64,000 nucleotides of DNA. Source: Escherichia coli (GTDB lineage Bacteria; Pseudomonadota; Gammaproteobacteria; Enterobacterales; Enterobacteriaceae). The stretch lies in NCBI RefSeq assembly GCF_030013595.1, contig NZ_CP122768.1, one strand, 5' to 3'. Shown piece by piece: positions 24,001 through 27,000 of this stretch. Numbering within the stretch: the stretch's first letter is position 1; every line of letters begins with the position of its first letter. Position numbers: made by a program.

Positions 24001-27000
24001 AGCTTTTCGTTGCGAAGCCTCAGTCCTTCAAGCTCCAGATCATTGCGACTGTCAGTTGCACCACCAGCAGAACTTCCTTTCGTCGCCGTTATCAGCTTGA
24101 TAAGTTCGCGCCGGGCGGCAGCCTTATCCTCCAGCAGGATCTCAACGCCGAATTTTCCGAGCTTTGCCCCTGCATATAATTGCCGCGCATCCCCATCAAG
24201 TAGAGTGGTATCAGCCATATAAAGCTGTCCCGTTCCCTCACCGCAGCACTTCGGGCAGTCCGGATTGGGTATGGCGTTATCAACAAAGCCGAGGCCTCCA
24301 TATTCTGGTTCAGGCTTACCGTCTTTAGATGCCTGCGCTGCTGCCCTGTCAAATTCTGCTATATCTCGCCACTGGTAGAGGTGATTCTCCCCCCAGCAAT
24401 AACGGCAGTTAACACGGCGAAATTGTGAAATCTGATTGGGATCAGCCTGGACAATGGCCATCAACTGGCTCACCAGTAAATCCAGGTCTGCGGTATAGCG
24501 TTTCTGGTACTGATTGCGGAACCATGAGATAGCCCGATAAACCTTAACATTTCTTAACAGACGTGAGGCTGCGGCACTTGCTACGTTTCCCGTTCCCTCG
24601 TAACCCGCTAGGCGGTATGCCTCGATGAGGTTTTTACCCTGCGCAACCAGCATGGCGAATTTTGCCTGCTGGTCAGAAATGCCGAATTCATCGGGACAGA
24701 ATGAAAATTCCTCCGCGTCGCCCTCATTCAGACACGCATCGGATACTGGCTTTTTTTTCTGAGATTTTCCGTTCCGCTTTTGCGCAGTCTGCGCAGATTT
24801 TTTCTGCGCACTTTGTTGCGCAGTTTTGCACATTTCTGTCTGCGCATTTTTCGGAGGTTTTTTGATGTAACGACGGGCTGTTGCGTAATTCAGTCCCCTT
24901 GCCTCACACCATGCCACCGGAGATACACCGGAGCGGGTGTATTCAGCAATATATTCCTGCTGCAACGCCCCCCAGTCCGGTCTGCTCATCAGTTAATCCT
25001 GATTTTTATCCACCCTGAGTAGTTCGCGCAGGGCAAAGGCATCCCCTTTTCTGGCAAGCTTAAACAATGCCGCCCGTAGCTCGGCTTCACCTTTCGCTCT
25101 GCCCTTACGGATGGACGCATAAAAATTTGTCATTGCTTCCCGATTTTCTTTCAGTCGGTTCAGATCAACATCCAGAAAGTTAGCGATTTGTTGTGCAGTC
25201 ATCCGGCACGCTGCCAGAGACTCGACTTTCGAATACGGAATCATTTGTCACCCCCATTGATATGCAGGGTGTCTTCTTCCTGTATTTTTCATGAAGGAAT
25301 TTACTGCAGAGTTACTCCATGCCAGTCTTGTTGAATGGCTCCAAAAAATAAGAGAATAATTCATAACATATATTGTAATTCAGGCTCGGTTATTTCGAAT
25401 TGAATACTTGCATTAAAATCTGATAAAAAATTCGTCATAACAACAACATTCTCTTCTGCATGTGCCATAACCTGCCGTAACAACCCGGCAGTTTTTTTTA
25501 TTGAATAAATTTCCGGTTTCTTCCACCATCGCACCGGCCAGGCGACTATGAGGGGACAACGCCGCGCTCCGTTAACGCAGTAAACCCCGGTGTGTATCGT
25601 TTTTGATTATTCCCGCACACTCGCGCAGAGGAGTCTCCCCGTAGGGCTGCGGTCTCTGTTAATGCGGAAATACGGCGACGATACAACGCATTGAAAAAAC
25701 TATTTCAGGCACTGAGTACGGATATATTCCTGAAGCGTTCTCAATGCTGCCTGGTCGCTGATGATTCCGTCTCTGATACCGAGAACGTTTCGTCCAGCAA
25801 CTGGAGAGAGTTCGACGCTGGCATCATTGCCCACGCGGGCGGTGGCGGTGGCTTCACGCACGGAGCCTGGACAGGTGGCGTTGATCCGCAGGCGCTTACG
25901 ACCAGCGGTAACATCAGCACGCAGAGTTTCATTTTCAGCTCTCGCATCGGCTAATTCCCTCGAGTATTTTGCATCGAGCGCAGCAACATCGTGCTGGCGC
26001 TGCTGCATATCAGTAATGGTGGCGTTCGCCAGCTTCAGCTCACTGACTTTTTTATCGCGCTGCGCTTTGTAAGTGATGGCGTTATCGCGGTAATGATTCA
26101 GCCCCAGACTAAGCACACCACAGACCACCAGCAGAATAACGGTAAACGCGGAAAGCATTCGGTTTATGCTCACCCCAGCATCCCCGACGAAGACAACATC
26201 ATCCAGCCCAGGGAAAGAAAAAGAGCAACCAGCATTAGTGAAAATGAAATGCCGACAATTACACAGAGGATCTTCGCCAGAGTTATGAGTTTGTCTGATA
26301 TCATTGGTCACCACTCCATCAATCCGTCTTTGTGATTTTTCCTTTGCCTGTATCAGCCAGGACAAAATCAATCAGCAGATTCGCTTCATTTATCAACGTG
26401 CGAATTTTTGATACATGTGCAGCTTTAACCGACTTCCACTCACTCAGCCCGGTACCAAACAAACTGGCGATGTTTTTATCCCGTTTCATGTCAGCGCATA
26501 CCTGATTGAGTTCTTCCATCACGCTCATTCGACGGGGATTAACGACAAAACCCTTCGTCCAGTATTCATAGAGAACATCGTCGCACTCTTCCTGATACTG
26601 AATGACCCTGTCGCGGATTTCAGGTTTAACTTTGTTGGGATTGATGGTTTGTAACCAGCCCGCAAGTTTTCGAAGTGGCAGGGATACCATATTGCGTCGT
26701 TTCCCATCCTCAGCAACCATAACGATTTCCGTTATAGTTGACGCAAAACGCTGTCTTAACTTAGCCAACTGTGATTGCCAGGCTAGCCCCATCCCCGCAA
26801 CAACAGGCTTCATGTGAACGTATGGCTCGCCATTATGGTTAACCACATAAAGAGAGTTGCCGTGAAACGGCACGGTCATCATATTCATCGGTTATTTCCT
26901 TTTAGTGATGAACCTTGTCTCACAGGAATCCGGCCCACAGAAAAGCACCGATAGCCAAACCGGTATCCTCAAGGGTCATCCTGAAAGGTTCTGTGTTGTG

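Follow-up and report, generated by a model that had tools for sequence, protein, structure and literature searches.

To our knowledge, packaging initiation (pac) sites have been defined in only a handful of phages, and how the small terminase subunit (TerS) reads pac is a long-standing open problem. In SPP1, whose small subunit G1P belongs to the Terminase_2 family, the pac region (pacL/pacC/pacR) overlaps the 5′ end of terS, where the DNA is bent and short repeated boxes serve as binding sites for TerS. In lambda, the N-terminal (winged) helix-turn-helix (HTH) domain of gpNu1 binds repeated sites at or near its own gene, anchoring the terminase beside the cut. There, cosB comprises three 16-bp R elements upstream of Nu1, integration host factor (IHF) and a precise cosN nick take part, and packaging is of the cos and not of the headful type. 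The pac site of P1 occupies about 161 bp within pacA and holds seven TGATCA/G hexamers with Dam sites, arranged in two groups (HEX4 and HEX3); synonymous mutation of the hexamers cuts packaging about ninefold (PMC10028697, where the work on pac and PacA of Sternberg & Coulby, 1987, and Skorupski et al., 1992, 1994, is summarised). In the P1 record, the hexamers lie at pacA nt 194, 201, 213, and 228 (194–233) and at nt 324, 336, and 347 (324–352), while the annotated pac cleavage positions are found at nt 276–285, beside an IHF site. In P22, pac consists of one asymmetric site, ~22 bp long (PMC11260489). Here we analyzed a 64,000-nt stretch of Escherichia coli DNA (GCF_030013595.1, contig NZ_CP122768.1), referred to as the window, in which the terS gene of a Rac-like lambdoid prophage carries a dense array of TGCGCA hexamers (24781–24846, minus strand). 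Comparison with related genes suggests that this array is probably the DNA-level recognition element of its own TerS, i.e., a pac site of the P1 type in which a new hexamer, independent of Dam, is used.

The hexamer array of terS and its likeness to P1 pac

The first-pass annotation had reported five TGCGCA hexamers within 66 bp of terS, and all five could be confirmed in the window sequence, at 24781, 24790, 24805, 24817, and 24841. The stretch 24781–24846 (TGCGCAgtcTGCGCAgattttttcTGCGCActttgtTGCGCAgttttgcacatttctgtcTGCGCA) corresponds to nt 144–209 of the 1092-nt gene, which places it in the 5′ third, and on the gene strand A-runs border it. A direct count in the DNA and the comparison with relatives define the candidate element as these five exact copies plus one decayed copy. 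The latter is located at 24827–24832 (minus strand); its gene-strand sequence is TGTGCA, part of the codons ATG TGC AAA (M-C-K). A degenerate copy had indeed been noted earlier, as TTGCAC at 24827, yet the plus-strand string at that position is TGCACA, and TTGCAC is the same element one base earlier (24826–24831). In most E. coli relatives the sixth copy is intact at gene nt 158 and is written in a different frame (ATG CGC AAA, M-R-K), indicating that the ancestral array had six copies. Centre-to-centre spacings of the six copies, the decayed one included, are 14, 10, 12, 15, and 9 bp (range 9–15 bp).

The whole window contains 29 TGCGCA, and 27 ± 5 were expected from shuffles. Since this is about chance level, the hexamer is enriched locally only and not throughout the window. 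When 29 sites were placed at random in 200,000 rounds, five never fell within 66 bp, and four did so in 13 rounds; the cluster is non-random. With copies of at most one mismatch counted, the array forms the densest 120 bp of the window (7 vs. a mean of 0.65). Tandem Repeats Finder resolved 24780–24850 into a pair of 36-nt units with three hexamers apiece; the units have diverged (80% matching), but the hexamers are preserved and the spacers are not. An exact-match scan also located one isolated TGCGCA at 24640–24645 (minus strand; gene nt 345, V-A-Q), a copy shared by only few E. coli-type relatives. Klebsiella-type relatives carry a second group of 2–3 copies at gene nt 348–398, which might correspond to the second cluster of P1. 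In the case of the E. coli-type gene, the idea of a second cluster equivalent to P1 HEX3 was rejected as unsupported, the copy at nt 345 being the only one.

P22 had been named earlier as the precedent for a pac site inside a small terminase gene. As to the location of the site the analogy stands, but the relevant precedent is P1 and not P22, since neither P22 gp3 nor its single 22-bp pac is related to this system. Gp3 is without this HTH domain and without a hexamer array; the window TerS matches Terminase_2 and phrog_51, not the gp3 family, and its site is a repeat array. As in P1, the array lies toward the 5′ end of the gene for the small subunit, right behind the region coding for an N-terminal HTH domain, and this domain is homologous to that of PacA. 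In both phages the site is composed of several 6-bp copies with an irregular spacing of 7–15 bp and in more than one reading frame. The two systems differ in the hexamer itself (TGCGCA in the window vs. TGATCA/G in P1), in the TerS body, which is of the Terminase_2 and not of the PacA type and is accompanied by a TerL of the Terminase_6N type, and in the host element (a Rac-like lambdoid prophage vs. a plasmid prophage). With SPP1 G1P the window TerS shares the Terminase_2 body; unlike it, G1P has no extra N-terminal domain, and the SPP1 boxes and their layout are unrelated. GpNu1 of lambda was absent from the matches of the N-terminal 47 aa of the window protein and of the alignment of this domain (A1), and no direct comparison of the two was made. 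The LF82 "Gally" phage was considered as a further precedent, its pac site having been mapped inside terS, and was rejected, as its TerS is an unrelated 140-aa protein. According to the literature, the pac site of ES18 is still unknown. A search of Rfam matched no family, and in a literature search no publication was found that describes arrays of TGCGCA or TGCGAA as pac sites.

From these features we infer a mechanism in which the HTH domain binds the hexamers, TerL cuts nearby and the DNA is packaged by the headful mode. TerS would carry the extra N-terminal HTH (aa 1–44) tethered by a flexible basic linker to its Terminase_2 oligomerisation body, and several HTH domains of one TerS oligomer would bind the five or six TGCGCA copies, which are spaced about one helical turn apart. 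The bound hexamers would sit in the linker-coding DNA itself. Binding of TerS would mark the concatemer or the unexcised prophage, TerL would be recruited to cut in the vicinity, and packaging would then proceed from terS to terL, i.e., leftwards, to lower coordinates; the leftward direction is assumed because P1 and other pac phages package in this manner. Sequence specificity appears to reside in an add-on HTH module located ahead of the canonical TerS DNA-binding domain. With such a mechanism, one could predict where lateral transduction from these prophages starts and in which direction it runs. The earlier proposal of a recognition site within terS is supported by conservation at the DNA level, by coupling of the array to a PacA-like HTH and by co-variation of the array with one helix of that domain.

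Pairing of the array with an N-terminal HTH domain

The N-terminal domain of the window TerS comprises codons 1–44 (24858–24989, minus strand; MSRPDWGALQQEYIAEYTRSGVSPVAWCEARGLNYATARRYIKK) and was delimited by homology to PacA and to TerS of Shiga toxin (Stx) phage 933W and by AlphaFold2 modeling. The model predicts a three-helix HTH bundle, with helices at residues 6–20, 24–31, and 35–38 and a predicted local distance difference test score (pLDDT) of 77–89. The domain is common to otherwise different TerS proteins of Klebsiella, Yersinia, Providencia, and Vibrio phages and of phage 933W (37% identity), and its more distant carriers are the PacA proteins of P1 and D6. A hidden Markov model of the domain matched all of the collected loci (237/237). 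The N-terminus of the window TerS matched phrog_1711, the PacA family, with an E value of 1.3e-4 (P1 PacA itself: 4e-202), and, reciprocally, the PacA proteins of P1 and D6 matched phrog_370 and phrog_51, which are TerS families. Alignment of the domain profile with the N-terminus of P1 PacA by hhalign gave a probability of 93.5% (E 2e-7). A sequence search of PDB yielded a weak match of the domain to the HTH of the IS21-family IstA transposase.

The position of the array relative to the domain is strict. Among 80 distinct related genes with an ARRY helix (the TGCGCA class, which was also the sample for the survey of reading frames described below), the first hexamer starts at gene nt 131–147 in 79. 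The coupling was also seen in the reverse direction. Viral contigs were scanned for three TGCGCA at gaps of 3–10 nt, which gave at least 120 loci; in 77 of the 120 listed, the HTH domain ends 5–47 nt upstream on the same strand, and in 2 more it is cut by the locus end. The rest represent tandem-repeat proteins, collagen-like or other, and GC-rich DNA. Single-linkage clustering of the TerS bodies lumped everything together through mosaic links and therefore gave no count of independent bodies.

Within the domain, codons 36–44 (ATARRYIKK; 24858–24884, minus strand) form the predicted recognition helix, as judged from co-variation across the family. Genes with the helix [ST]-A-R-R-Y-[IV]-K (85 genes) have a median of 5–8.5 TGCGCA and no TGCGAA. 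Those with A-K-R-[YH]-I-K (41 genes) show a median of 5.5–7 TGCGAA/TTCGCA, often as the palindrome TGCGAATTCGCA, and 0–1 TGCGCA, while the 15 genes with A-R-T-R-I-K (933W type) carry 4–5 YGATCA(T). The helix residues that co-vary are 36/37, 40, and 44. The two main helix classes are interleaved in sequence space, and 933W-like N-terminal domains equipped with an ARRYIKL helix are accompanied by TGCGCA arrays (loci L219–L235). In two twin pairs (L142/L006 and L083/L128), the DNA is ~99% identical as far as the end of helix 2; both split abruptly from approximately nt 92–108, where helix 3 and the array switch together. Such co-variation is what would be expected of a protein–DNA recognition pair, and we regard it as strong but not conclusive evidence for one. 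With TGCGCA, TGCGAA, and YGATCA, nature provides a set of specificity variants that go along with minor changes in a single helix, which makes TerS–DNA recognition testable.

More tentatively, the 44-aa HTH together with its array could constitute a portable, self-contained packaging-specificity cassette, carried on unrelated TerS bodies, in which the helix residues set the hexamer. Positions 36/37, 40–42, and 44 may be decisive, with ARRYIK specifying TGCGCA, AKRYIK specifying TGCGAA and ARTRIK specifying YGATCA. The range of such a cassette may cover hundreds of Enterobacterales and Vibrio phages, including Rac-like prophages, temperate phages of Klebsiella and Yersinia, Stx phages, and P1. 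If this is true, it would be a natural, readable terminase–pac code; pac sites could be predicted from sequence, and exchanging helix 3 together with the array would allow the specificity of packaging or transduction to be re-engineered.

The 933W-type loci (933W itself, L007, NC_000924.1 28775–29581, and L179–L218) deserve separate description. Their TerS has the same N-terminal HTH with the helix NTARTRIKM, and the array, at gene nt ~135–185 in 933W, consists of four to five YGATCAT in a 12-nt tandem repeat (IDHE/IDHK/TDHE/IDHD), followed by one or two TGCGCAA copies. Each hexamer of this type holds a Dam GATC site, like the pac hexamers of P1. The array is likely a Dam-sensitive pac site of Stx phages, apparently one not described before.

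Several observations weigh against a P1-type pac site in the window. A literature search for any phage with this TerS found no experimental packaging, DNA-end or TerS-binding data, and headful packaging is not established in the literature for this TerL type. The window has a single cluster of 5–6 copies, whereas P1 has 4 + 3 copies around a central cut. No GATC is present in 24600–24990, so that control by Dam methylation is impossible, unlike in P1, and a consensus scan for IHF sites (WATCAR-N4-TTR) found none on either strand from gene nt −300 to +600. Of the features that define the P1 type, three are found here (position, array, and N-terminal domain) and three are missing (two clusters, Dam/GATC sites, and IHF). 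At the protein level, the top Foldseek matches of the 65-aa model were all HTH proteins, none of them significant, the query being small. One clade (L093–L097, L103–L107) is an exception to the pairing of domain and array: it has an ARRYIKL helix, but neither its linker nor the DNA within 1.5 kb contains an array. Helix 3 is separated from the array by only ~15–25 nt, and because of this proximity their co-variation could reflect linkage, i.e., inheritance as one block. Finally, locus L113 combines a K-type helix with runs of both TGCGAA and TGCGCA, and P1 pairs an ARRY helix with TGATCA, which means that there is no simple one-residue code.

The array-less clade is made up of viral contigs with a TerS of 237–239 aa and a GC content of ~0.42. 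In L113 (IMGVR_UViG_2846979917_000004; helix STAKRYIKI), the 300 nt after the HTH contain about five TGCGAA/TTCGCA and then five TGCGCA, the latter in three frames (K-C-A-K, V-R-K, T-A-Q, S-A-H, and V-R-N). This hybrid array could have arisen by recombination between the specificity classes, or it could be a site of two parts.

The N-terminal domain of TerS might bind the array for a purpose other than headful packaging, either as a cosB-like anchor of a phage with defined ends or as an operator through which terS and terL are autoregulated. Binding of lambda gpNu1 to the repeated R sites beside its gene is a model for the former. As for the latter, the array is both transcribed and translated, and TerS bound to it could block ribosomes or RNA polymerase. 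In agreement with either, no published DNA ends were found in the literature for relatives of this TerL (RothC/D, Chronis, PdC23, and Yersinia vB_YenM); PhageTerm was run for RothC in the KlebPhaCol preprint, the main text of which states no outcome. However, among homologues of the module of domain and array, only P1 pac has been characterised, and it is a headful initiation site. The body of the window TerS is moreover of the Terminase_2 type, the family to which G1P of the pac phage SPP1 belongs. We therefore consider a cosB-like or operator function unlikely, and a pac function the better explanation of the array.

It is less likely still that another protein, be it a host factor or the HTH-like 83-aa protein encoded upstream, reads the hexamers and that the TerS helix co-varies with them through linkage alone. 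In line with this idea, helix 3 and the array are close enough to be rarely recombined, and in E. coli-type loci the 83-aa open reading frame (ORF), which matches phrog_309 (E 7e-22), directly precedes terS and is translationally coupled to it. This ORF, however, is absent from the array-bearing loci of the Klebsiella, Yersinia, Vibrio, and 933W types, and the N-terminal HTH of TerS is the sole protein element common to all arrays. In addition, changes of the array follow the predicted recognition helix while helices 1–2 stay identical. These observations favor recognition by TerS itself.

A DNA signal within coding sequence

The array is carried by the DNA of a K/Q/A-rich linker (codons 45–106; 24672–24857, minus strand), which connects the HTH to the Terminase_2 body. 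The first-pass annotation had described repeated A-Q dipeptides in this linker. All five exact hexamers do encode X-A-Q, in codons 48–70 (N48-A-Q, T56-A-Q, S60-A-Q, S65-A-Q, and T68-A-Q), and all are written xxT GCG CAx; to this should be added that the gene lies on the minus strand. The array could accordingly be a by-product of coding, arising from repeated codons in a low-complexity, A-Q-rich basic linker, possibly by replication slippage. Apart from the single frame used by the five copies of the window, the imperfect 2 × 36-nt duplication and the 933W array, a perfect in-frame 12-nt tandem repeat, would fit such an origin.

Related genes contradict it. The 80 genes surveyed contain 493 hexamers, of which 379 are written xxT GCG CAx, 92 xTG CGC Axx (M/L/V-R-x), and 22 TGC GCA (C-A), so that relatives write the hexamer in three frames and as different peptides; at least two frames are used in 69/80 genes. 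In the main frame, the residue preceding Ala may be T, S, N, I, A, V, P, F, D, or L, and its codon ends in T without exception. Klebsiella-phage homologues, only 36% identical overall, have six TGCGCA at the same place, spelled ACT GCG CAA (T-A-Q), CTG CGC ACT (L-R-T), and TGC GCA (C-A). Relatives carry 4–9 copies, and spacings of 7, 10, 14, and 16 nt, none of them multiples of 3, are common among them. The spelling also varies with location: X-A-Q/H is written with TGCGCA in 156 of 189 distinct linker contexts (83%) vs. 11 of 59 contexts outside the linker of these genes (19%; Fisher p 4e-19). In one frameshifted pseudogene (L074), the hexamers are still kept. Third-position diversity in 37 E. 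coli-type sequences was 0.02–0.07 over the 5′ 255 nt vs. 0.11–0.32 further downstream; only this regional figure is usable, as a per-column comparison of hexamer and non-hexamer positions is blurred by indels of the repeat units. Retention of the hexamer while the frame and the peptide change points to selection on the DNA and not on the peptide. By the measure of these sequence comparisons, the TGCGCA cluster is a conserved DNA signal and not a side-effect of codon usage, and codon repetition, which had been put forward earlier as the alternative to a recognition site, is a very improbable explanation.

Equally remote is the explanation that the palindromic hexamers and the T-runs of the plus strand act as intrinsic terminators or hairpins against transcription antisense to terS: a scan did find overlapping hairpin-plus-T-run sites on the plus strand at 24779–24797 and 24790–24810 (4 sites in the region vs. 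1.3 expected), but any two GC-rich palindromic hexamers between A/T runs would score in this way, the TGCGAA class is self-complementary only when paired, arrays hold 5–9 copies and not two, and the strict position after the HTH and the co-variation with the helix would be left unexplained. The terminator-like hairpins at 24779–24810 (plus strand) are probably a by-product of the array.

The linker DNA also includes an A8 run on the gene strand (T8 at 24751–24758 on the plus strand). In the protein database we observed more than 100 clusters of fragments of 44–83 aa (P0001–P0120) that end soon after the HTH domain, many of which translate the array in a shifted frame (e.g., ...KKLLRKLRTNLRRKKCALRRK); the same truncation occurs at loci L039, L074, and L091. 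The truncated fragments result from frameshifts in the A-runs of the linker, and they may be sequencing errors, decaying prophages, or real products made up of the HTH only. A profile search of proteins with the N-terminal domain returned only such 44–83-aa fragments, and these were used for the structure alignment and not for the survey.

The terminase genes and their prophage

The terS gene (23898–24989, minus strand) was assigned from its ORF, from Pfam and from the annotation of E. coli cq9. It encodes 363 aa with the extra N-terminal HTH, the linker and a Terminase_2 body at aa 107–310, which scored 36.8 bits against PF03592 (gathering cut-off 26.1). The whole protein matched phrog_51, "terminase small subunit," with an E value of 8.6e-69, and aa 108–176 showed a weak match to the N-terminal part of Pam5 TerS (E 0.017). 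Its end is overlapped by terL (22580–23908, minus strand; 442 aa, Terminase_6N, from ORF and Pfam evidence), which is followed by the portal gene. TerL is presumed to be the nuclease/ATPase partner of TerS.

The first 340 nt of terS, used as query, are 100% identical in E. coli cq9, where the gene is annotated as terminase small subunit. The gene order of the Rac-like lambdoid prophage of cq9 (ydaU/ydaV, hokD, AB5 toxin genes, lysis genes, terS) is that of the window. The 5′ end of terS is present in 884 of 5426 complete E. coli genomes (~16%), and the array would offer a sequence-predictable pac candidate for this prophage type, among whose members genes for AB5 and LT-II toxins are found. 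A likely pac site with Dam sites as in P1 would be gained in the same manner for 933W-type Stx phages.

The 83-aa ORF upstream of terS (24993–25244, minus strand) stops 3 nt before the terS start codon. Its match to phrog_309 ("terminase small subunit") covers only positions 145–218 of 319, and a Pfam search gave no match. It is found directly upstream of terS in 67/67 E. coli-type loci with a match and in no other class. The ORF may encode a second small DNA-binding partner or be what is left of a terS that was replaced.

The window also harbors a pertussis-toxin-like AB5 toxin pair (28195–28677 and 28688–29413, minus strand), with the late-regulatory region on one side and the lysis genes on the other; the pair is annotated in cq9 as a scabin-related ADP-ribosyltransferase and a subtilase-family AB5 binding subunit. 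Stx phages carry stx at this position, and Rac-SA53 has LT-IIa there. The terS gene of Rac-SA53 (L358, KU052037.1 24713–25741) is annotated as "gpOterS; fusion of two genes by deletion." Its similarity to the window starts only at gene nt 153, within the array, which indicates that the HTH domain and the first hexamer were lost; under the model proposed here, Rac-SA53 would be expected to be defective in packaging. A further relative was detected in the record of Actinobacillus phage vB_Apl-pPE4 (PP818812.1, 20956–23092), where TerL is 100% identical to that of this E. coli prophage and the 3′ part of terS is 92% identical, with the first 294 nt of the gene absent. This likeness suggests contamination, mislabelling, or a very recent transfer.

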